Positions 1 through 53,235 of a stretch of 64,000 nucleotides of DNA are shown piece after piece. The stretch is from positions 602 to 64,601 of the forward strand of contig JAUYPE010000005.1 of NCBI GenBank assembly GCA_030697705.1, in the 5' to 3' direction. Below the pieces are notes generated by a model. The model saw only the letters and a program-made list of their open reading frames with translations. It was not told the DNA's origin and did not search any database. The position numbers and the translations under genes were made by a program. Source of the stretch: a bacterium (lineage in GTDB: Bacteria > Patescibacteriota > Minisyncoccia > Sungbacterales > HO2-52-23). The stretch's first letter is position 1, and each line of letters starts with the position of its first letter.

Positions 1-1310
1 AAGCGATGCGATTCGTCGCGCACGCGCTGAAAAAAAAACATGACCGCTGGCGGAAGGGTCGCTAATCGCACAGGCAAGACCTTTCCTTGAAGATATAACT
101 CCTCATCCCGTTTTGCGAGAGCGGAGAGATGGATTCGTGGATTCTCTCTGCGTAAAATGGAGCGCACGGCGCCAAGCTGCGGTCTGCCGCCGTCTATGAC
201 AAGCAGATCGGGCGTACCCCAATCAGAAATGTGATTCAGGCGGCGGCGCATGACCTCCTTATGCATGGCGACATCGTTTGCCTGGTGGACGGTTTTAATC
301 TTAAACTTTCGGTATTCTTTTTTTGCCGGCGTACCGTCTATGAAAACAACCATGGATCCCGTCGCATCCGTGCCGGAGATGTTTGAAATATCATACCCTT
401 CCACCCGGCGAATAGGGCTATTCGTCTTGAATAATGCTTGAATAACGGGCTGAATGGCGCTCCATTCCACGGCTGAATTTCGCCGCGTCCGGACATTTTG
501 ACGAATCGCAGGACGGTGGCGAAAGACATTCTCCACGCCAAAAAGAGCATCCCGCAGACGCGCCGCTTCCTCAAATTTTTCCACCGCGACCGCCGTGCGA
601 AGTTCACGCTTGAGTTCACGCAAAAGTTCATGTTTTTTCCCCGTGAGGATGGCTATGATATTTTTAATGTTCTCACGATAGCGCGTTCGTTCCTCATCGG
701 TCGGCACATGCCCTCGCCGAGGATCCAAACAGCAAAATCCGAGGCATCGTCCAATCTGCGCATTCAGGCAGAGGCGCTTATGCGGCGTCCCACAGGTACA
801 GTAGGGGAAGACGCGGCGCACCATCCGCACGACCGAGCGTATGGCATACGCGCTCGTGAAGGGACCAATAAGAGGATAATGCTGAATGCTGAATGCTGAA
901 TGCTGAATAACTGCAGAAGATCTTACTTTTTTATTCTGCATTTGACATTTGGCATTTGGCATTTCTCTTGCAGGCTGTCGGGTGAAAAAGAATTTAGGAA
1001 ACTCCTCATCCGTAACGCCAACATACAAGTAGTCGGGCTGGATGACGTTGAACTTCGGCAGGTGGCGCCGGATGAGCTCCGCCTCTAAAATGAGAGCTTC
1101 TATTTCAGAAGGCGTTTCAAGAAATTCCAAAGTCGTCGCCTCCGCCGTCAGATGGCGTTCTTTTTCGCTACCGTTTTTACGAAAATACGAAGTAACCCGC
1201 TTTTTAATATTTGCGGCTTTACCGACATAGATCAGCGTCCTCCCGCGGCGAAATAGGTACACGCCGGGCGTTGTTGGAGCGGCTATTGCCGTTTTGTGGA
1301 TAGTTGACAT
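1..1310 (-). CDS. uvrC: excinuclease ABC subunit C (UvrC); C-terminal part runs off window start; carries an in-frame ~20-aa insertion encoded by a 7-mer-repeat hairpin (878-966)
   Basis: Minus-strand translation from the ATG (rc of 1308-1310) gives MSTIHKTAIAAPTTPGVYLFRRGRTLIYVGKAANIKKRVTSYF (GIY-YIG motif). It continues through the Cys-rich region (FPYCTCGTPHKRLCLNAQIGRCLGFCC), the UVR domain (FEEAARLRD) and the RNaseH-like endonuclease domain (GYDISNISGTDATGSMVVF...DLLVIDGGRPQLGAV) to QRVRDESHRF at position 1, with no stop. It is absent from the ORF track only because no stop lies within the window. Confidence 0.9.
   Translation of the reverse strand, partial: MSTIHKTAIAAPTTPGVYLFRRGRTLIYVGKAANIKKRVTSYFRKNGSEKERHLTAEATTLEFLETPSEIEALILEAELIRRHLPKFNVIQPDYLYVGVTDEEFPKFFFTRQPAREMPNAKCQMQNKKVRSSAVIQHSAFSIQHYPLIGPFTSAYAIRSVVRMVRRVFPYCTCGTPHKRLCLNAQIGRCLGFCCLDPRRGHVPTDEERTRYRENIKNIIAILTGKKHELLRELKRELRTAVAVEKFEEAARLRDALFGVENVFRHRPAIRQNVRTRRNSAVEWSAIQPVIQALFKTNSPIRRVEGYDISNISGTDATGSMVVFIDGTPAKKEYRKFKIKTVHQANDVAMHKEVMRRRLNHISDWGTPDLLVIDGGRPQLGAVRSILRRENPRIHLSALAKRDEELYLQGKVLPVRLATLPPAVMFFFQRVRDESHR
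878..966. repeat. hairpin-forming heptanucleotide-repeat cassette inside uvrC: 4x AATGCTG (878-905), spacer, ~3.5x CATTTGR (939-966, rc CCAAATG); translated in-frame as ...AKCQMQNKKVRSSAVIQHSAFSIQH...
   Basis: Direct reading of the tandem 7-mers. The two arms are partly complementary (AATGCTG vs AATGCCA units). The insertion falls where E. coli UvrC has only the short variable loop HRGAKHAKGE. Confidence 0.7.
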
Positions 1311-1451
1311 TAAATAGTTATTATGCCATATTGAGTGTAGCACGTTCATATAAAAGTATAAACCCGCATGGCAGAGAGCAATAGAAATGGAAGATGATTG
1401 CGGAAGATGATTACCCAAAAAAGCCACCCAACGCTTCACCGCCGTGGGTGG

Positions 1452-1479
1452 TTGATTTTTGTTAAAAATACGCTATACT
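1452..1479 (+). promoter_or_regulatory. sigma70-like promoter for uvrA: TTGATT (1452-1457) - 16 nt - TATACT (1474-1479)
   Basis: Near-consensus hexamers. The -10 lies 12 nt upstream of the uvrA ATG at 1492, so the ORF-track TTG at 1459 is upstream of the likely TSS. Confidence 0.4.
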
Positions 1480-1491
1480 GAAGCGTTTACG

Positions 1492-4400
1492 ATGAAAAAA
1501 ACCACTAAGAAACCTACACTGCCCTCCGGCGAGATTATCAGCATCCGCGGGGCGCGGACGCACAATCTCAAAAACATTGATGTTGACATCCCCAAGGGAA
1601 AATTGGTCGTCATTACCGGTCTTTCTGGTTCTGGAAAGTCATCGCTCGCGTTTGATACGATCTACGCCGAGGCGGAACGGCGTTATGTGGAGTCGCTCTC
1701 AAGCTACGCTCGCCAATTCCTCGGTGTGCAGGAGAAGCCGGATGTTGAATCCATTGACGGCCTCTCGCCGGCTATTTCCATTGACCAAAAGTCCGTCTCG
1801 CGCAATCCCCGTTCCACGGTTGGCACCATTACCGAAATTTATGACTATTTGCGAATCCTCTTCGCACGGATTGGCCGCCCACACTGCCCGGAGTGCGGCG
1901 TACCGGTAGAGCGCCAGACGATTGAGCAGATGCTGGAGGAAATTCGCCATGCTCTGCGCGGCAAAGAAGAAACGCTCATTCTCGCCCCGCTCGCCTCGGG
2001 GAAAAAAGGCGAACATCGCGGGTTATTGGAGGAAGCGCGCCGTGCCGGTTTTATCCGTGCACGCCTGAATGGCGAGGTGCGTACGATAGAGGAGTGGATG
2101 TCCTTGCCCATTAAGAAGAATAAAAAACATTCGCTGGAGGTCGTGGTGGATCGTCTCACGGAGAGCGCCGCCATTGAGCCGGGGCGTATGCGCGATTCGG
2201 TAGAGACCGCGCTTAAAATCGGTAAAGGAGTGATGATTGCGGCAATAAAGGATAATGCTAAATTACAAATGCTCAATGCTGAAAAGGAGCGAGGCAAGCA
2301 CGTTGCTTCAGCATTCAGCATTCAGCATTCAGCATTGTTTGAAGACCTTCTTTTCTCCGAACGGTTTGCTTGCAAAATGTGCGGTAAGAATCTGCCCGAT
2401 AGTGAGCCACGGACATTTTCTTTCAATAGTCCCTATGGGGCTTGTCCGCACTGCACAGGACTTGGCGCAACGCTGGAAGCGGATCCTGATCTTGTCGTTC
2501 CCAATGAGAATCTTTCCATCGCGGAAGGTGCTGTCCGCCCCTGGGCGGGCGCCTCACATCGTGTCGGACGGCAGAGTTGGTACTGGTGGATTCTTGACGA
2601 CCTCGCAACGCGTCATGGCTTCTCGCTTAAAGTTCCCTTTAAAGATATTGCCGCGCACGCACGAGCATTGATTCTTTTCGGTGAGCCGGGTGCTCGTGTG
2701 AAGAATGGAGAATCAATGTCAGATTTGGGAGATGAACGCGAGGCGCAAATCCGCGCAACGCCGGGTGGTTTTGAAGGCGTCATTCCCAATCTCAAACGGC
2801 GTTGGAAAGAAACCGATTCCGAATTTACCCGCGCCGAAATTGAGAAGTATATGATTATTCGCACCTGTACGGCGTGCGCGGGGCACCGGCTGCGTCCCGA
2901 GGCGCTTGCCGTGCGCATCAACGGCGAGAATATCGCCGGTGTTGCCGACCGCACGGTGGAGCAGGCGGCCGCGTGGTTTGAGGGACTTGTTGATAAAAAA
3001 ACGGCGCTCTCTGCAATGGAATTGAAAATAGCCGCGCCCATTGCCAAAGAGATCGCCAAGCGGCTGACTTTTTTGCGGGATGTGGGGCTGGACTATCTTA
3101 CCCTCGCGCGCGAGTCAACCACGCTTTCGGGTGGCGAGGCGCAACGCATTCATCTTGCCACGCAAATCGGCTCACGCCTCACGGGAATTATCTATATTCT
3201 TGATGAACCGAGTATCGGTCTGCATCCGCGCGACAATGCGCAACTTATCACAACCCTCAAGCAACTGCGCGATCTCGGCAATACTGTTCTTGTTGTAGAG
3301 CACGATGCCGAAACGATGCTCGCGTCGGACTGGATTATTGATATCGGACCGGGCGCGGGGAGCCATGGCGGACGGATTATTTTTTCCGGTACGCCGGCGG
3401 CATTGCTCAACGCCAAAACATCAACCGCCGACTATCTTTCCGGCAGGAAAAAAATTGAGCGACCTAAGATTACGCGTCATTCCGAACGCAGTGAGGAATC
3501 CCGACAACATACGGGATCCCTCACTCATACCCAGGATGACCAACAAAAGAAAGGACGAGATGCGATACATTTTCTCACCATTTTCGGTGCCACGGAGCAC
3601 AATCTCAAAAATATCACCGTCCGCATGCCGCTCGGGCAATTCATCTGTATTACGGGTGTTTCCGGCTCCGGAAAGTCAACGCTCATCAACGATATTCTTG
3701 CCAAAGCGCTTCTGGCAAAATTGCACGGAGCGCATACCATTCCTGGCGCACACAAAAACATTACCGGCATTGAGCATCTCAACAAGGCGATCGTCGTTGA
3801 CCAGTCGCCCATCGGTCGTACCCCGCGTTCCAATCCTGCCACCTACACCGGTGCGTTCGGATTCATCCGTACGCTTTTTGCAAGCACGCCCGAAGCGCGG
3901 GCGCGCGGATATCTGCCCGGCCGTTTCAGCTTTAATGTCAGAGGCGGACGGTGCGAGGCGTGCGAGGGACAGGGCGTGAAAAAAATAGAGATGCACTTCC
4001 TTCCCGATGTGTATATTGAATGTGAAGAGTGCCGCGGCACGCGGTATAATCGCGAGGCATTAGAAATTCTGTATCGCGGTAAGACGATTGCGGAGGTCTT
4101 AAATATGCCGATTGAAGAGGCACTGGACTTTTTTGAGGCCGTTCCCGCCGTACAGACAAAATTGGCAACCATGGTGGAGGTGGGCTTAGGTTATATGCGA
4201 CTCGGCCAGCCGGCGCCGACGCTCTCGGGAGGTGAGGCGCAGCGCATCAAGCTTGCCACCGAACTCTCACGCCGTGATACCGGCGCGTCGCTTTATATTC
4301 TGGATGAGCCAACGACCGGACTCCACTTTGACGACATTAAAAAACTCTTGGGAGTTTTACACGCCCTGGTGGAAAAAGGCAATACCGTTCTCGTTATTGA

Positions 4401-4557
4401 GCACAATATGGATATCATCAAAAACGCCGACTGGATCATTGATCTTGGTCCCGAGGGAGGGGAGCGCGGCGGTACCCTTGTCGCCGAAGGAACTCCCGCC
4501 GATGTGGTGAAAGTAAAGCAGTCCTATACGGGACAATGGTTGATGAAAAGTTTATAG
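1492..4557 (+). CDS. uvrA: excinuclease ABC subunit A (UvrA), with an in-frame ~27-aa insertion encoded by a 7-mer-repeat hairpin (2250-2336)
   Basis: MKKTTKKPTLPSGEIISIRGARTHNLKNIDVDIPKGKLVVITGLSGSGKSSLAFDTIYAEAERRYVES; two ABC modules (GLSGSGKSS and GVSGSGKST Walker A; LSGGEAQRI signatures); zinc-finger Cys pairs. The whole 3.1-kb ORF is continuous. Confidence 0.95.
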   Translation: MKKTTKKPTLPSGEIISIRGARTHNLKNIDVDIPKGKLVVITGLSGSGKSSLAFDTIYAEAERRYVESLSSYARQFLGVQEKPDVESIDGLSPAISIDQKSVSRNPRSTVGTITEIYDYLRILFARIGRPHCPECGVPVERQTIEQMLEEIRHALRGKEETLILAPLASGKKGEHRGLLEEARRAGFIRARLNGEVRTIEEWMSLPIKKNKKHSLEVVVDRLTESAAIEPGRMRDSVETALKIGKGVMIAAIKDNAKLQMLNAEKERGKHVASAFSIQHSALFEDLLFSERFACKMCGKNLPDSEPRTFSFNSPYGACPHCTGLGATLEADPDLVVPNENLSIAEGAVRPWAGASHRVGRQSWYWWILDDLATRHGFSLKVPFKDIAAHARALILFGEPGARVKNGESMSDLGDEREAQIRATPGGFEGVIPNLKRRWKETDSEFTRAEIEKYMIIRTCTACAGHRLRPEALAVRINGENIAGVADRTVEQAAAWFEGLVDKKTALSAMELKIAAPIAKEIAKRLTFLRDVGLDYLTLARESTTLSGGEAQRIHLATQIGSRLTGIIYILDEPSIGLHPRDNAQLITTLKQLRDLGNTVLVVEHDAETMLASDWIIDIGPGAGSHGGRIIFSGTPAALLNAKTSTADYLSGRKKIERPKITRHSERSEESRQHTGSLTHTQDDQQKKGRDAIHFLTIFGATEHNLKNITVRMPLGQFICITGVSGSGKSTLINDILAKALLAKLHGAHTIPGAHKNITGIEHLNKAIVVDQSPIGRTPRSNPATYTGAFGFIRTLFASTPEARARGYLPGRFSFNVRGGRCEACEGQGVKKIEMHFLPDVYIECEECRGTRYNREALEILYRGKTIAEVLNMPIEEALDFFEAVPAVQTKLATMVEVGLGYMRLGQPAPTLSGGEAQRIKLATELSRRDTGASLYILDEPTTGLHFDDIKKLLGVLHALVEKGNTVLVIEHNMDIIKNADWIIDLGPEGGERGGTLVAEGTPADVVKVKQSYTGQWLMKSL
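2250..2336. repeat. hairpin-forming heptanucleotide-repeat cassette inside uvrA: left arm AATGCT units (2254-2283), 23-nt spacer, right arm 4x TTCAGCA (2307-2334); translated in-frame as KDNAKLQMLNAEKERGKHVASAFSIQHSAL
   Basis: Direct reading. The right arm is the reverse complement of the AATGCTG repeat also seen in uvrC. Alignment with E. coli UvrA places it where only the 6-aa loop MDGSVE exists (RIAE...MLFSE). Confidence 0.7.
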
Positions 4558-4620: not shown

Positions 4621-5145
4621 ATGGAAGTTACCAAGCTCTTTTTACAACTGCTAGAAACACAAGGATGGGTATCGTGGATCTCACATGGTGTTTGGGATGC
4701 CCATCAAGCAGGACTGCTTCCCGATGTTAGTGTTGGCGGGAATTGTCCGGAGAACCTCCGTCTTAAGCTCCAGCAGAATGTTCCCTATCCGACATTTTTT
4801 GAAGAGGATCAGTGGAATAGTGTTCTTGATTATTGTGGAATGAGAAGTGGAAACAGTACTGCCTATGTGAGCGATAGGACAAATACCTATTATATCAAGA
4901 GAGCGACAATCGCTTTCTTTGAAGACAAAGTGGGGTATGATGTGACTTGCAGAAAAGAACGGCGCAAGAATTTTCGGCGCTATGGGCTACCAGTTACTTC
5001 CATGCATGTTACTCACCTTATTGTAGGGTGTGCTCAATATACTGCGGCGCATTTTGCCGAGCTTCGCGACCAAATAATGCTGCGACTCAATCAGGGAGAT
5101 CCAGGAGATATAGTGAAAATAGCCAAGATACTGAAGATATCTTAA
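4621..5145 (+). CDS. hypothetical protein (174 aa), no recognisable domain
   Basis: Strong SD (AAGGAGAAATCTG-ATG). ORF MEVTKLFLQLLETQGWVSWISHG...; lower GC than flanks; convergent with the adjacent toxin-antitoxin pair. Confidence 0.55.
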   Translation: MEVTKLFLQLLETQGWVSWISHGVWDAHQAGLLPDVSVGGNCPENLRLKLQQNVPYPTFFEEDQWNSVLDYCGMRSGNSTAYVSDRTNTYYIKRATIAFFEDKVGYDVTCRKERRKNFRRYGLPVTSMHVTHLIVGCAQYTAAHFAELRDQIMLRLNQGDPGDIVKIAKILKIS

Positions 5146-5216: not shown

Positions 5217-5474
5217 TTAGCGGTAACTGTCTTTGCGATGGTCAACATCAAAAAAGATCACAACCTCCGGATTTTGGAGATAGAAAAAGGCGCGATAGCG
5301 CCGGGTAATCCGAAGAGAGAATACCCCTCCCGTGTCATGTAGCTTTTTACCGTGAAGCCGTGGGTCGCGTGGACTTTCCTCAAATCGTTCCAGTTGCACA
5401 TCACAGAGTTTCTGAATCTCTTTTGGCAGATTCCGATAGGCACGGTCAAAATCGACGGTACGAAAAACTTTCAT
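5217..5474 (-). CDS. type II toxin, RelE/ParE superfamily
   Basis: 85 aa: ...KKLHDTGGVFSLRITRRYRAFFYLQNPEVVIFFDVDHRKDSY matches the RelE/ParE core. The start overlaps the upstream gene's stop by 4 nt (ATGA). Confidence 0.8.
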   Translation of the reverse strand: MKVFRTVDFDRAYRNLPKEIQKLCDVQLERFEESPRDPRLHGKKLHDTGGVFSLRITRRYRAFFYLQNPEVVIFFDVDHRKDSYR

Positions 5475-5674
5475 ACGCCAACGGGCGGATATTCCTTGAG
5501 CGCTCGACGAAGCGAGTGGCGGATGCGCTTGGGATGTTCGTACTCCTCAAAATGATCTTCGGGTAGTACCAAAGTGACTTCACTGCGAAGGAGCCGAACT
5601 TCGCGCAGTAATGATTGAAGCATTTGGGCGTTTGACTGCTTATTTTTTACTTTCTGTATTTTAGTAGTAGTCAT
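5471..5674 (-). CDS. putative antitoxin partner of RelE/ParE toxin (67 aa from MTTTKIQ...)
   Basis: Small ORF immediately upstream with 4-nt start/stop overlap with the toxin gene. Sequence ...LQSLLREVRLLRSEVTLVLPEDHFEEYEHPKRIRHS; family not recognised. Confidence 0.55.
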   Translation of the reverse strand: MTTTKIQKVKNKQSNAQMLQSLLREVRLLRSEVTLVLPEDHFEEYEHPKRIRHSLRRALKEYPPVGV

Positions 5675-5744
5675 ATTCTGATTATAGTAAAAATCATAAT
5701 GTGCGTCAATCGCTTGACAGTGACAAGTAAGGGCGTTACCATGG

Positions 5745-5771
5745 TTAGCAGTCATAGGTCGAGAGTGCTAA
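5745..5771 (+). promoter_or_regulatory. CIRCE operator (HrcA binding site) TTAGCAGTC-N9-GAGTGCTAA upstream of groES
   Basis: Matches the consensus TTAGCACTC-N9-GAGTGCTAA with one mismatch, 40 nt upstream of the groES ATG. A TATAAT at 5790-5795 follows. Confidence 0.8.
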
Positions 5772-8507: not shown

Positions 8508-9080
8508 TCACCTCGCTTGGATGCGGGGTTTTTTCTTTTTGCGCGCGACCATAAAAAACATGGGGAGGAAATTGCGCGGTTCAAGCTGGAGATCTATTTT
8601 CGCAAAATACTTCTTGAGCAGGGAACGCATGAGAAGTGAGTACTGATAGATGAGGAATATGCCGTCGGGTGCCAATGCCCGGGCGGTGTCGCGCACCACT
8701 CGCTCGCGTATGCGGGGCGGGAAAAAAGTAAACGGAATACTGGAGAGTACCGCGTCTATGCGAGGGACGCCTATTTTTTTGAGCGTGCGGGAGATGACGG
8801 TAACGTCGCCCGCTACGACGATGAGGCGCGGATCTTTGATAGTCCGAAGTTCGGCAAGAAACTTAGAATTGAGTTCAATAGCAACCACCTTCCCGCCAGC
8901 GGGAAGGTGCCGGAGCAGTTCGCGCGTTACTACTCCGTCGCCCGCGCCATACTCCACGATATATTTCCGTCCGGCGCCAAGTTCGCGCCGGATGCGGCGA
9001 ATGACAAAGCGCGAAGAGGGCGTAAATGCACCGACTTTATAGTCCGTAAGAGCAGTTTTTATATATTTTATTCCTCGCAT
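8508..9080 (-). CDS. class I SAM-dependent methyltransferase
   Basis: Motif I IVEYGAGDGVVT; post-I acidic residue; ~190 aa Rossmann fold. Confidence 0.7.
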   Translation of the reverse strand: MRGIKYIKTALTDYKVGAFTPSSRFVIRRIRRELGAGRKYIVEYGAGDGVVTRELLRHLPAGGKVVAIELNSKFLAELRTIKDPRLIVVAGDVTVISRTLKKIGVPRIDAVLSSIPFTFFPPRIRERVVRDTARALAPDGIFLIYQYSLLMRSLLKKYFAKIDLQLEPRNFLPMFFMVARKKKKPRIQAR

Positions 9081-13204: not shown

Positions 13205-14059
13205 ATGTCGTTTTTTATCCCGCTTCTTTCAGCCATATTTCAGGCCGGATCGTTGACTCTGGACAAGATCATCCTTTCATTTCGCCGCATGGGTTGGCGA
13301 GAGTATGTGGGCGTGAGTTTCCCGCTCTCGTTTCTTGTTGTTTTTGCACTTTTTCTCATAGTTCGGCCGCCGCTCACCCTTGCGCTCTTCAGTGGTGGGC
13401 TGGTCTGGCTCCTTGTCGCCTCCATCCTGCTCGCGGCGGGGAGTAATCTCTTTTTTTATTATGCGCTGGATCGCGATCGGCTTGCAGAGCTTGGTATCGC
13501 AGGCCTGCTCAACCGCATTCCGATTATTCTTTTTTCAAGCATATTCTTTGCCGATGAACGACGGTTCGGTATTCTTATCCCCGCGCTTATCGCCAGTACA
13601 GCCATCATTTGGTCCCACTGGGAGCGACATCATCTTAAAATGGCGCGCGGGACGATTATCTTTATCTTGTGGTCATTTCTTGCCGGACCGCTTCTGGCAA
13701 TGACTTCCAAAAGCATCCTCATCGTCATGCATCCCATCAGTTATGACCTCATCCGCACGGGCACCCTGGCGGTTATTTTCGGTCTCGCCTTCTTCCGTCA
13801 TGCGCGGTCTATTCCCCGTGCCGCTGTCCCGCTGCTCCTTGCAACGAACACGCTTACCTCGCTCTCTAATATCCTTTTTTTCTTCAGCTACCAACTTTCC
13901 GGCATTGTCTATACCTCGCTCCTCTTCTCGTTCGAGCCGCTCCTGGTACACTTCAGTGCCGTTTTTTTTCTTAAAGAACGTCTGCACTGGAAAAAATCGA
14001 TTGCTTTCGCCGTTGTCCTCCTCTCCATTCTCGCCGCGCAGTTCTATGGCGCACGCTAG
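13205..14059 (+). CDS. EamA/DMT-superfamily transporter
   Basis: 284 aa, ~10 TM segments, duplicated EamA-like halves. Confidence 0.7.
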   Translation: MSFFIPLLSAIFQAGSLTLDKIILSFRRMGWREYVGVSFPLSFLVVFALFLIVRPPLTLALFSGGLVWLLVASILLAAGSNLFFYYALDRDRLAELGIAGLLNRIPIILFSSIFFADERRFGILIPALIASTAIIWSHWERHHLKMARGTIIFILWSFLAGPLLAMTSKSILIVMHPISYDLIRTGTLAVIFGLAFFRHARSIPRAAVPLLLATNTLTSLSNILFFFSYQLSGIVYTSLLFSFEPLLVHFSAVFFLKERLHWKKSIAFAVVLLSILAAQFYGAR

Positions 14060-14064
14060 ACTCT

Positions 14065-14150
14065 GGGGATAACTTAACTATCCCCCTTGTGGGGATAACT
14101 TAACTATCCCCCTTGTGGGGATAACTTAACTATCCCCCTTGTGGGGATAA
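14065..14150. repeat. tandem array, 3.3 copies of 26-bp unit GGGGATAACTTAACTATCCCCCTTGT; each unit is internally palindromic (GGGGATA...TATCCCC)
   Basis: Exact repeats at 14065-14090, 14091-14116 and 14117-14142, plus a partial 14143-14150. No unique spacers, so not CRISPR. Confidence 0.9.
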
Positions 14151-17682: not shown

Positions 17683-17795
17683 TCCCTCTCTGTCATGCAG
17701 AGCGAAGCGACTGCCAGCAGGCGTCCCGTGAGGGAAGCATCCCGATACCTACAGGTATCTAACGGGATTCCTCGTTTCACTCGGAATGACGGGGG
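17683..17795. repeat. intergenic modular palindromic element, family 'GTCATTCCGAG...CGAGGAATCCCGT' (copy A; motif in minus orientation at 17763-17793 plus shared module GAGCGACTGCCAGYAGGCGTCCCGTGAGGGA)
   Basis: Sequence shared with copies at 21536-21610, 34786-34920, 50341-50482 and 31191-31312. Confidence 0.6.
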
Positions 17796-21535: not shown

Positions 21536-21610
21536 AGTCTGTCATTCCGAGCGTCCGCGAGGAATCCCGTAAGTTAACGAGATGTTTTGCCTGACGGATT
21601 AGCATGACGA
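21536..21610. repeat. intergenic element of the GTCATTCCGAG...CGAGGAATCCCGT family (copy B; motif in plus orientation at 21541-21570)
   Basis: GTCATTCCGAGCGTCCGCGAGGAATCCCGT. Confidence 0.55.
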
Positions 21611-21660: not shown

Positions 21661-22218
21661 ATGAATCAACTCTACATCATCGGAGGTGTTGTCGTGCTCG
21701 CGATATTCTTTTTTATCGGTATTTATAACGGTCTCATCCGGCGGCGGAATCAAGCCGAGGAGGCGTGGTCGGACATTGAAGTCCAGCTCAAGCGCCGGTA
21801 CGATCTCATCCCCAATATCATAGAGACGGTGAAGGGATATGCGGGACACGAACGAGAAACACTGGATAGTGTCACCATGGCGCGCACGCAAGCGATGGGA
21901 GCCCAAACCGCTGATGAGCATGCCAAAGCGGAGAATGTCCTTGCCGGAACGCTCAAGACGCTTTTTGCCGTTTCGGAGAATTATCCCCAGCTCAAGGCGA
22001 ATGAGAATTTTCTGGAGCTTCAGCGTGAGCTCTCCGACACGGAAAACAAAATTCAGTCCGCGCGGCGCTTCTTCAATGGTGTCGTCCGCGATTACAATAT
22101 CGCTATCCAGTCCTTTCCCTCCAGCGTTGTTGCCGGTATGTTTGGCTTTACCCGCAAGGAACTTTTTGACTTGAGTGATACCGATGTGGCTCAACAGCCG
22201 GTAAAGGTTCAGTTTTGA
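21661..22218 (+). CDS. lemA: LemA-family membrane protein
   Basis: N-terminal TM; YNGLIRRRNQAEEAWSDIEVQLKRRYDLIPN...ENYPQLKANENF. Confidence 0.85.
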   Translation: MNQLYIIGGVVVLAIFFFIGIYNGLIRRRNQAEEAWSDIEVQLKRRYDLIPNIIETVKGYAGHERETLDSVTMARTQAMGAQTADEHAKAENVLAGTLKTLFAVSENYPQLKANENFLELQRELSDTENKIQSARRFFNGVVRDYNIAIQSFPSSVVAGMFGFTRKELFDLSDTDVAQQPVKVQF

Positions 22219-22221
22219 AGA

Positions 22222-22318
22222 AAGTGCTTAGTCCTTAGCCACTAGCGATGAGAGGAGAAAAGGAAAGAGAACTTCTCCTCTTGTCTCTGCTGATGGCTAA
22301 GCACTAACAACTAAGGAC
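22222..22318 (+). terminator. long imperfect hairpin (~40-bp arms) ending in TTTTT between lemA and htpX
   Basis: AGTGCTTAGTCCTTAGCCACTAGCGATGAGAGGAG pairs with CTCCTCTTGTCTCTGCTGATGGCTAAGCACTAACAACTAAGGACT, followed by a T-run. Confidence 0.5.
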
Positions 22319-25334: not shown

Positions 25335-25458
25335 TACTTGCGTTAAGGAGAGGTTACATAGGTGGTCTCGTGCGCACGATTGTTCCCGATTTGTCCAAGA
25401 TTCCGAGTTTTTAAGAACGAAGAAATCTTGGCTCACAAATCACAATCCCGTACAAACC

Positions 25459-25545
25459 GGAGGCGTCGCATAGTGGCCTAGTGCGCTCGCTTGGAAAGCG
25501 AGTAGACCTTAACCGGTCTCGGAGGTTCGAATCCTCCCGCCTCCG
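25459..25545 (+). tRNA. tRNA-Ser (anticodon GGA), 87 nt, long variable arm, discriminator G, no encoded CCA
   Basis: Acceptor GGAGGCG/CGCCTCC; anticodon stem CUCGC/GCGAG with loop UUGGAAA; variable arm AGACC-UUAACC-GGUCU; T-arm GGAGG-UUCGAAU-CCUCC. Confidence 0.9.
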
Positions 25546-25612
25546 GTTTGTACGGGAGAAAGCGTGTCTTAGGTTTTAGATACCTGTCAATACACTCATT
25601 TTATGTAGAATT

Positions 25613-44092: not shown

Positions 44093-44098
44093 ATTATG

Positions 44099-44259
44099 AG
44101 ACCCACTGCTTAATAACCTTTTCTACTCCGACCGTGCTTTTTCGGCTGCAAACAACTCATCGCTCGTCGATGAATACCTTGCATTCACCTCCTCGCGTTT
44201 CATTGTTTTCGCCCGAAAAAGCATGGTCTCGCTACGAAAAATTATTAAGCAGTGGGTCT
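44099..44259. repeat. 161-nt nested-hairpin element with perfect 18-bp terminal inverted repeats (AGACCCACTGCTTAATAA / TTATTAAGCAGTGGGTCT), wedged between ssb and rpsR; paralogous to 53065-53223
   Basis: Perfect outer IR plus an inner IR (CGACCGTGCTTTTTCGG / CCGAAAAAGCATGGTCTCG). Internal sequence blocks are shared with the dnaB-upstream copy. Confidence 0.6.
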
Positions 44260-44260
44260 A

Positions 44261-44788
44261 TTAAAAAGGTATATCTTTGACATCTATTTCTTCTCCGTCT
44301 TCCGGAAGCTCAATAATGGGCGGTTCTTCCTGTCCACCGCCGTCAGCGCGTGCCGACGGTTGATTCTGATTGTTCCGGTCGCGCGATGGCGTGCTGTTAT
44401 ATCGCTCTCCGCGCATCAGCGATGCTCCTTGCTCTTGTCCTCCGCCCATTATCGCTCCCGCCGGTCGCGGACCGAATTGAAATTCATCCACGACAATTTC
44501 AGTGCGGTAGTGTTTGACACCCTGTTGATCCTGCCATGAGCGCGTTTGCAGTCGCCCCTCAATAAACATACTGCTGCCTTTTTTCATGTACTGGGCGATG
44601 ACCTCGGCCTGTCGTCCCCATGCGACCAAATTATGGAATTCCACCTGGTCGCGCTTCTGCCCGCTCGCGTCGTTGAAGGTGCGATTGGTCGCAATCCCGA
44701 ACGTGCACACCGGCTGACCGCCGGGCGTTTGGCGAATTTCCGGGTCGCGTGTAAAATTGCCGAAAAGGAATACTTTGTTGAGGTTCAT
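44261..44788 (-). CDS. ssb: single-stranded DNA-binding protein
   Basis: OB fold (MNLNKVFLFGNFTRDPEIRQTPGG...), Gly/Gln-rich linker, C-terminal DIPF. Confidence 0.9.
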   Translation of the reverse strand: MNLNKVFLFGNFTRDPEIRQTPGGQPVCTFGIATNRTFNDASGQKRDQVEFHNLVAWGRQAEVIAQYMKKGSSMFIEGRLQTRSWQDQQGVKHYRTEIVVDEFQFGPRPAGAIMGGGQEQGASLMRGERYNSTPSRDRNNQNQPSARADGGGQEEPPIIELPEDGEEIDVKDIPF

Positions 44789-50340: not shown

Positions 50341-50482
50341 TTAGGACTTCCGCATTTGATTGTCATCCAGAGTCCGCCCAGGGCGGACGAAGGATCCCGT
50401 TAGATTTCAGTATACTGAATATTCACGGGATTCCTCGCTTCACTCGGAATGACGGATCAAGAGGCAAACGCGTAAGTCCTAA
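50341..50482. repeat. 142-bp palindromic element of the GTCATTCCGAG family (copy D): 13-bp terminal IRs TTAGGACTTCCGC/GCGTAAGTCCTAA, two opposed half-sites around central palindrome TTCAGTATACTGAA
   Basis: Right half rc = GTCATTCCGAGTGAAGCGAGGAATCCCGT. Left half = GTCATCCAGAGT..CGAAGGATCCCGT with an embedded CCGCCCAGGGCGG palindrome. Confidence 0.65.
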
Positions 50483-53016: not shown

Positions 53017-53064
53017 ATTGACAAAGATGTGCTTTTTGCGTTGCAGATAGTAGGGTGGTACATT

Positions 53065-53223
53065 AGACCTGTCCCCTTATAACCTTTCTACTGCAATGTT
53101 CACATTTCGGCTACGACTTTACAAAAATCTTGAAGCATATACAGCGTATATGTTGAAAGATTTTTGTTTTGTCTCGCTCGAAATCTGAACATCTCGTAAC
53201 GAAAATTATAAGGGGACAGGTCT
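53065..53223. repeat. 159-nt nested-hairpin element with perfect 18-bp terminal inverted repeats (AGACCTGTCCCCTTATAA / TTATAAGGGGACAGGTCT) immediately upstream of dnaB; paralog of 44099-44259
   Basis: Shares start CCTTTCTACT, TTTCGGCT, GTCTCGCT and CGAAAA blocks with the rpsR-upstream copy. Terminal stem sequences differ but remain perfectly paired in each. Confidence 0.6.
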
Positions 53224-53235
53224 ATTGAAAAAACT

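Follow-up and report, generated by a model that had tools for sequence, protein, structure and literature searches.

Each gene of a divergent uvrC-uvrA pair in an uncultured Candidatus Sungbacteria bacterium (Parcubacteria, Candidate Phyla Radiation (CPR)) carries an in-frame palindromic cassette with arms built from tandem heptanucleotides. The pair lies in a 64,000 nt stretch of contig JAUYPE010000005.1 (assembly GCA_030697705.1, positions 602 to 64,601), which was analyzed as a whole and is called the window here. The two cassettes, imperfect palindromes of 99 nt in uvrC and 90 nt in uvrA, probably represent a tolerated, self-copying heptanucleotide hairpin repeat that survives in permissive loops of these nucleotide-excision repair (NER) proteins and evolves fast, rather than an on/off switch. 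A preliminary description of this DNA had reported in-frame palindromic inserts in both genes, and repeat finding, folding, translation and an independent assembly all agree that they are real.

Heptanucleotide-arm hairpins in uvrC and uvrA

Tandem Repeats Finder detected three period-7 arrays in the uvrC/uvrA region (Table 1). The perfect uvrA array at 2307-2336 is a 30 nt perfect reverse complement of positions 878-907 in uvrC, 1399 nt away, and on the forward strand both cassettes have the direct orientation. Copies of the 14-mer AATGCTGAATGCTG with up to two mismatches occur seven times in the window, all within the two cassette sites, against a chance expectation of 0.67; seven copies were reached in none of 100 shuffles. 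No third AATGCTG copy was found in the 64 kb window, which is also the span covered by all copy counts given here for this genome.

Both sites are predicted to fold stably. For the uvrC site we obtained -41.5 kcal/mol (z -6.0) on the forward strand and -29.7 kcal/mol (z -4.4) on the mRNA strand, and for the uvrA site -33.9 kcal/mol (z -3.9). When the forward strand of the whole window was scanned in sliding windows, the uvrC cassette was the top folding outlier after correction for GC content. The two uvrC arms pair through G·U pairs, on the forward (antisense) strand only, and the degenerate uvrA arm is 80% complementary to the perfect array opposite it. Rfam matched no RNA family at either cassette. 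The cassettes are not an assembly artefact, since an independent Logan assembly (L001, run SRR13727529) is identical to the window across 14,093 nt and the NCBI proteins P0001 (UvrA) and P0121 (UvrC) are 100% identical to the window proteins.

Table 1. Coordinates in the window of the repair genes, the parts of their cassettes and other palindromic features.
Feature	Position	Strand	Description
uvrC, 5´ part	1-1310	minus	Runs off the window start; ATG 1310-1308 matches the start in relatives
uvrA	1492-4557	plus	1021 aa; matches PDB 2R6F, E = 0
uvrC in-frame cassette	873-971	minus	33 codons, UvrC aa 114-146, AREMPNAKCQMQNKKVRSSAVIQHSAFSIQHYP; hairpin ~869-970
Perfect array (AATGCTG)x4.4	878-908		100% identity; 3´ arm in uvrC mRNA; CAGCATT reading gives VIQHSAFSIQH
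uvrC hairpin loop	909-937		Encodes QNKKVRSSA; A-rich centre
Array (GCATTTG)x3.9	938-964		90% identity; gene strand (CAAATGC)n, MPNAKCQMQ
uvrA in-frame cassette 1	2248-2337	plus	30 codons, UvrA aa 253-282, KDNAKLQMLNAEKERGKHVASAFSIQHSAL; hairpin
uvrA degenerate sense arm	2254-2283	plus	AATGCTA AATTACA AATGCTC AATGCTG AA; in-frame TGA removed
uvrA hairpin loop	2284-2306	plus	Without similarity to the uvrC loop
Perfect array (TTCAGCA)x4.3	2307-2336	plus	100% identity; read as SAFSIQHSA
GTCAT...ATGAC palindrome, in-frame copy	3476-3540	plus	UvrA inter-half linker, aa 661-689, TRHSERSEESRQ...; z -4.6
GTCAT...ATGAC palindrome, intergenic copy	17692-17790
GTCAT...ATGAC palindrome, intergenic copy	21541-21608
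GTCAT...ATGAC palindrome, intergenic copy	50362-50453
Hairpin between two divergent open reading frames	22217-22310		-43.3 kcal/mol

The reading frames of both cassettes follow from the coding properties of the unit. Read as (AATGCTG)n, the array translates as NAEC*MLNAEC*, with a TGA in each of the three frames, whereas (CAGCATT)n has no stop in any frame and invariably encodes QHSAFSI, so only the CAGCATT strand is translatable. With divergent genes and directly oriented cassettes, the perfect array is read as CAGCATT in either gene. The similar peptide that had been pointed out in UvrC and UvrA is indeed seen in both proteins, but needs no biological cause, as it follows from a palindrome with a single open strand.

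The opposite arm is stop-free in both genes, by different routes. In uvrC it has been recoded as another amplified unit, CAAATGC (MPNAKCQM), and in uvrA point changes have made it open. When we restored perfectly complementary arms in silico, UvrC stopped at aa 123 and UvrA at aa 259. As ideal arms would thus truncate both proteins, selection has kept uvrC and uvrA open. Simulated gain or loss of one or two units truncated UvrA at aa 279-398 and UvrC at aa 122-187, and a change of three units kept the frame.

The inserts occupy loops of both proteins

The assignment of uvrC is supported by the Pfam domains of P0121 (GIY-YIG, UvrC_M, UVR and UvrC_RNaseH_dom) and by synteny with L002, the locus of a close relative; the NCBI start of P0121 lies at 1349, 13 codons upstream of the ATG given in Table 1. 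The UvrC insert follows the GIY-YIG domain, past the end of every solved structure of this domain in UvrC. In the AlphaFold model it lies between two β strands, has no secondary structure and has a predicted local distance difference test (pLDDT) score below 50. Cassette 1 of UvrA forms the tip of a β-hairpin directly before the FACxxC zinc-module motif. In an alignment with the Geobacillus stearothermophilus structure 2R6F, 34 residues at this site correspond to 6. The model places the insert between strands 247-253 and 283-289, and the mean pLDDT values for the four 10-residue blocks of residues 251-290 are 81, 66, 49 and 79. These results bear out the expectation that the sites are short loops elsewhere, and the inserts fall in parts of the models that are disordered or of low confidence. 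We also noted that UvrC proteins of this clade (P0121-P0240) are short, at ~425-490 aa, and end after the RNase H-like endonuclease domain, with no helix-hairpin-helix domain among their Pfam hits.

Turnover of the loops among relatives

We compared the two genes with 120 UvrA and 120 UvrC homologues from Sungbacteria and Parcubacteria. In the closest relatives (77-85% identity), the matching sites are occupied by different inserts. In the syntenic locus L002, where UvrA is 85% identical, the hairpin at the uvrA site is strong but belongs to another family (CATTCCGAACGCAGTGAGGAATCCCG, -55 kcal/mol), and the uvrC site holds an unrelated, non-folding insert of 24 aa. The uvrC genes of the window, L002 and a third locus, L330, are 76-81% identical at the nucleotide level and all have an insert at the uvrC site; in a three-way DNA alignment these inserts share only the A-rich centre. 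As the loop centre is common to the relatives, the uvrC insert appears to be older than the lineage of the window: it probably predates the separation of the three lineages, with the arms remodeled in the window lineage. The heptamer sequences themselves are absent from L002, L330 and the 120 homologues, which bears out the suggestion that orthologues lack these inserts; the two closest relatives do hold the older insert at the uvrC site.

Length and sequence at these sites vary widely across the homologues, from 4 to 59 aa at UvrA site 1, from 11 to 53 in the linker between the UvrA halves and from 6 to 48 in UvrC loop 1. Peptide types that recur among the inserts include HSERSEES, VIPAKAGIQ and HSNILKNVG, and there are heptad types such as NSKFKIQ and NAKLKMQ.

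Period-7 inserts recur across Parcubacteria

The cassette type is not peculiar to this genome. The same UvrC and UvrA loops carry period-7 inserts, often hairpin-forming, across Parcubacteria. For this analysis, 80 Parcubacteria uvrC loci were collected from metagenomes with peptide patterns located outside the loops, which makes the set unbiased for inserts. In UvrC loops of at least 14 aa, nucleotide self-match at period 7 was 0.458, versus ~0.25 at periods other than 6-8 (0.35 and 0.33), and amino-acid self-match in 68 long UvrC loops peaked at a shift of 7 (0.16 versus 0.04-0.095). In-frame hairpins with heptamer arms made of other units were present in uvrC loop 1 of L128 (AATACTA) and L136, in uvrA site 1 of L139 (GTCGTCA) and in the alanine racemase gene of L137 (TTCATAA). 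Arrays also occur in two more UvrC loops and in the UvrA linker. About 12 of 31 arrays fall within hairpins of z ≤ -3, and the arrays of relatives are mostly 2.6-3.6 units long or degenerate.

Perfect period-7 arrays of at least 2.5 copies were then counted in the 80 loci and compared by Fisher test. There were 16 in 102.8 kb of uvrC, 5 in 61.1 kb of uvrA and 5 in the remaining 392 kb of flanking DNA, corresponding to 12.2-fold (p = 8e-8) and 6.4-fold (p = 0.006) enrichment relative to the flanks. Period-4 arrays showed no excess in uvrC or uvrA over flanking DNA. The period-7 arrays are not exclusive to NER genes, as they also occur in alanine racemase and in an NTP_transf_2 protein. Since the arrays fall at only about five sites, the events behind the enrichment are possibly not independent.

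Units are shared between sites within a genome

Both uvrA and uvrC were present in 34 loci, and 4 of the 34 have arrays in both genes. For two of these four, the same cyclic unit is found in the sense strand of uvrA and uvrC: the window, with CAGCATT, and L137 (Ga0075937_110), with CCAAATC at three sites, the uvrA linker and two uvrC loops. L137 additionally carries the related unit TTCATAA in its in-frame alanine racemase hairpin (L137 sites 509-540, 4846-4864, 5665-5681 and 8670-8689). With ~2,300 cyclic heptamer classes by our own estimate, shared units in two genomes are very unlikely to arise by chance, suggesting that arrays are transferred between sites within a genome.

A second palindrome also lies in uvrA. 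The window contains a family of palindromes, GTCAT...ATGAC, with the core CATTCCGAG...GGAATCCCG; three of its copies are intergenic, and a fourth, in-frame copy lies in the linker between the UvrA halves (Table 1). The linker insert is unrelated to cassette 1 and has pLDDT below 50. In L002 it is the cassette-1 site that holds this family. The in-frame linker copy is independent evidence that UvrA loops do receive palindromic repeats of this genome.

The statement that the cassette type occurs nowhere else in the 64 kb holds for the unit AATGCTG but not for the architecture. The intergenic hairpin at 22217-22310 is cassette-like, with arms of 7 nt period (AGTGCTT AGTCCTT AGCCACT / CTAAGCA CTAACAA CTAAGGA), built from a different unit, with units containing TAG.

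Origin and significance of the cassettes

The observations can be brought together in a scheme in which arrays would grow and shrink by replication slippage and could reach nearby sites as copies made through template switching, ectopic conversion or some other insertion process. In compact Parcubacteria genomes, such arrays persist mainly where a translated, floppy surface loop is harmless, the permissive sites being three UvrC loops and two UvrA loops. The frame is preserved, the stop-free CAGCATT strand alone serves as sense, and the TGA-bearing arm is recoded. The uvrA cassette may be a recent gain or replacement, its array shared with uvrC through intragenomic copying. The encoded peptides would have no function of their own, and NER would stay on. 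Several points weigh against this scheme. It names no single copying mechanism, and the two cassettes share their arms only, with unrelated loops. Copy number is known for 64 kb, and length variants at low frequency may exist. In addition, the 12-fold and 6-fold enrichment, seen for period 7 and not for period 4, may be more than loop tolerance alone can explain.

One alternative is that a discrete element resembling a MITE (miniature inverted-repeat transposable element) or a Rickettsia palindromic element (RPE) transposed whole into uvrC and uvrA and lost its stops afterwards. The 30 nt of perfect identity linking the sites would fit such an event, as would the absence of the unit from the closest relative, the presence in the same genome of the GTCAT...ATGAC family with both intergenic and in-frame copies, and the occurrence of one unit at several sites in L137 as well. 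The left flanks are also similar, with CAATAA(G)AGGAT preceding the first unit in both cassettes; we rejected this motif as firm evidence of a target site, as it is partly conserved native coding sequence (LIG in uvrC, AI in uvrA) and is represented by two copies only. We nevertheless regard whole-element transposition as unlikely. The cassette loops are unrelated, neither terminal repeats beyond the arrays nor target duplications were seen, and there is no third copy in the 64 kb. Moreover, the uvrC insert has a centre homologous to that of the older inserts of relatives, which argues that this insert did not arrive whole, and a fresh perfect palindrome would have introduced stops in every frame.

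The same arrays had been proposed to be contingency loci, in which slippage by one or two units toggles UvrA or UvrC and thereby modulates repair and the mutation rate. This is possible in principle. The arrays are perfect, they lie within open reading frames (ORFs) and are enriched in NER genes, and the unit length is not a multiple of three, so that a length change shifts the frame, as our simulations of unit gain and loss confirmed for both proteins. A heptanucleotide is also known to mediate phase variation, in the hmwA promoters of Haemophilus influenzae (PMC8262952). However, when we looked for frameshifts at arrays by two-frame matches, none were found among 121 uvrA/uvrC gene instances with 26 perfect arrays in the deduplicated set, and the window, the Logan assembly and the NCBI proteins all have the same in-frame unit count. 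A search of JGI metagenomes with the uvrA flank plus the last unit (CAGCATTGTTTGAAGACCTTC), aimed at other unit numbers, gave no exact matches. Together with the truncation caused by one or two units, the absence of an OFF allele argues against frequent phase variation. The tracts are also short, at 4.3-4.4 units compared with 13-24 in hmwA, and most arrays of relatives are shorter still or degenerate. Similar arrays are found in alanine racemase and other housekeeping proteins. Loss of NER is not known to cause a strong spontaneous mutator phenotype, a further argument against toggling. All in all, we consider contingency loci highly improbable. One frameshift candidate, L203, was discarded, as it reflects a tandem duplication of the uvrC 5´ region unrelated to the arrays; this duplication (4780-5120 of the metagenome contig) is either real or a misassembly.

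It is also conceivable that selection keeps the inserts as functional cis elements, through RNA structure controlling uvrA and uvrC expression, or as useful flexible loops. The enrichment in uvrC and uvrA across the 80 unbiased loci, the recurrent use of the same loops and the strong folding z-scores speak for this. Against it, different lineages have unrelated units, lengths and peptides, many orthologues lack an insert altogether, and only ~40% of the arrays form significant hairpins. In uvrC the hairpin folds less strongly on the mRNA strand than on the antisense strand, there is no match in Rfam, and the modeled inserts are disordered or of low confidence, making a functional element very unlikely in our judgment. 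A related and broader proposal, that Parcubacteria NER genes are specific, selected hosts of heptamer-hairpin repeats, beyond mere tolerance, is suggested by the 6-12-fold enrichment and by the finding, in two unrelated genomes, of one unit shared by uvrA and uvrC, which are adjacent and divergent; we find it very unlikely. Its basis could be a cis-regulatory RNA or DNA structure, or a rare, reversible inactivation of repair through slippage or array inversion. The promoter shared by the two genes, together with the 5´ halves of both, lies between the inverted 30 nt arrays (878-907 and 2307-2336). Inversion across these arrays in silico produced out-of-frame fusions that broke both genes, and no assembly was inverted.

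If the cassettes are indeed tolerated, self-copying repeats, 7 nt slippage repeats would be able to form hairpins, spread by self-copying from site to site and reshape surface loops in conserved proteins. This would constitute a second route, beside Rickettsia-type elements, from selfish or neutral repeat DNA to protein sequence, at work in very compact CPR genomes with little intergenic space. It would offer a handle on why heptanucleotide repeats, AATGCTG included, are scattered across distant phyla. Any real link between repeat instability and repair genes would be notable. For annotation, it would mean that 'hypothetical' peptides such as QHSAFSI and NSKFKIQ, and length differences between orthologues, are often repeat-derived.

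Comparison with known repeat systems

In-frame palindromic elements are known from Rickettsia (RPEs) and Coxiella, where intragenic MITEs such as QMITE have been described (PMC10969869). The analogy with RPEs drawn in the preliminary description proved apt. Like RPEs, short hairpin repeats of this genome occur both between genes and in frame in unrelated housekeeping genes, at sites compatible with the fold and with the ORF preserved, and the heptamer sequences are absent from orthologues. The lengths of 99 and 90 nt and z-scores of -3.9 to -6.0 are in keeping with hairpin-forming elements of ~100-150 bp. However, RPEs form ~150 bp families with conserved sequence and a conserved encoded peptide, whereas the cassettes have simple tandem heptamer arms with lineage-specific units, their loops differ between copies and their structure partly evolved in place; no sequence relationship is expected. 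We saw neither conservation of a whole element nor defined ends or a target duplication for the two copies in the 64 kb, which have only their arms in common.

Heptanucleotide repeats form the second point of comparison. TAACTGA repeats occur in Beggiatoaceae, Cyanobacteria and Bacteroidetes (MacGregor, 2015, PMC4679880), and one strand of such repeats is filled with stops, while 'reverse' copies occasionally lie within genes (PMC4679880). Long simple sequence repeats were treated by Mrazek et al., 2007, as cited in PMC4679880, and in Geobacter metallireducens MTYCTGA and GGGACCG repeats have been described, with heptanucleotide elements of four or five units (PMC2700814). The cassette arrays are similar in that they consist of at least three perfect 7 nt tandem units (4.4 and 4.3 copies, 100% identity), one strand has stops in all frames and both genes read the open CAGCATT orientation, as copies within ORFs always do in the described repeats. 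They also share the scatter across phyla and the strong preference for period 7. The unit differs, being AATGCTG (ATG-C-TGA) rather than TAACTGA, and TAACTGA-type repeats are for the most part direct arrays between genes with no predicted folding, in contrast to the cassette arrays, both of which are paired in hairpins inside genes for conserved repair proteins.

In the hmwA promoters, (ATCTTTC)n tracts of 13-24 units underlie phase variation (PMC8262952). The cassettes resemble them in having a 7 nt unit whose length changes could alter expression. They differ in that the hmwA tracts lie in promoters and vary between isolates, whereas the cassette arrays have ~4 units within ORFs, short of a long, high-slippage tract, and show no ON/OFF alleles among the 121 genes. 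The cassettes thus work like an RPE and a heptanucleotide simple-sequence repeat at once, lacking one defining feature of each (conservation over the whole element and unstructured arrays between genes, respectively). The GTCAT...ATGAC family, as a set of small multi-copy palindromes, looks like repetitive extragenic palindromes (REPs), which are extragenic by definition and not built from tandem units.

Heptanucleotide repeats with a stop-filled strand and in-frame palindromes are therefore known, and what appears to be new, judging from the literature we searched, is the occurrence of heptamer-arm hairpins in CPR proteins. We found no description of these cassettes or of such hairpins in CPR proteins in that literature, with subscription journals outside its coverage.

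The AATGCTG unit in other phyla

A search of the genome collection for (AATGCTG)3 gave at least 120 loci. The phyla among the matches listed are Acidobacteriota, Lentisphaerota, Verrucomicrobiota, Planctomycetota, Chloroflexota, Bacteroidota, Gemmatimonadota and Cyanobacteria; no CPR genome is among these matches, a result that carries no information on further copies in the genome studied here. The (AATGCTG) arrays in the listed loci are mostly intergenic and adjoin gene ends, and 35 of 128 arrays among the matches listed have an inverted (CAGCATT)n partner within 200 nt. The same loci contain 223 period-7 arrays compared with at most 10 for any other period from 4 to 12. In viral contigs, 15 stretches of the AATGCTG unit were found, with 1 for a permuted control and 107 for TAACTGA.

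In four proteins from other phyla (L041, L036, L103 and L083), IQHSAFSIQ is encoded in frame by (CAGCATT)2-3 with Pfam support around the insert; the hosts are an AddA/UvrD-like helicase-nuclease, LeuRS, an aldehyde dehydrogenase and a Ser/Thr kinase-cyclase. A second segment of the helicase-nuclease, INAECRVQNAERKSTFNMQHTTFN, resembles a complete cassette from which the stop has been removed. A peptide search with (SAFSIQH)6, a threshold too strict for inserts of 2-3 heptads, returned 21 matches, all in ORFs of 35-72 aa without domains.

We also noted that many heptamers in L004-L123 follow the pattern NNN-C/T-TGA, in which NNN is often a start codon (ATGCTGA, GTGCTGA, TTGCTGA, ATGTTGA and ATGATGA, for example), and that the point where an array begins is often the upstream gene's stop codon or a position a few bases ahead of a start codon. 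A 40 kb contig classed as viral (IMGVR_UViG_3300028840_003139; L208, L210, L215, L216 and L218) has at least 12 separate (AATGCTG) arrays of at least three units.

Other features of the window

Between uvrA and groES, at 5217-5755, lie a small ORF encoding a ParE-like toxin (weak Pfam hit) and an upstream partner ORF; the pair is absent from the syntenic relative L002. Two related imperfect palindromes of ~170 nt, at 44094-44264 and 53061-53227, have 82 nt arms that are 72-73% complementary, are both located between predicted ORFs and look MITE-like. Directly after an ORF ending at 14059, a perfect 26 nt tandem repeat (TGGGGATAACTTAACTATCCCCCTTG) is present in 3.3 copies (14064-14150), each unit being a small palindrome. 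The single tRNA found in the window, tRNA-Ser(GGA) at 25458-25546, is located inside a perfect 20 nt inverted repeat (25446-25465 / 25538-25557), and the acceptor stem would therefore be extended by ~12 bp through pairing of the leader with the trailer.

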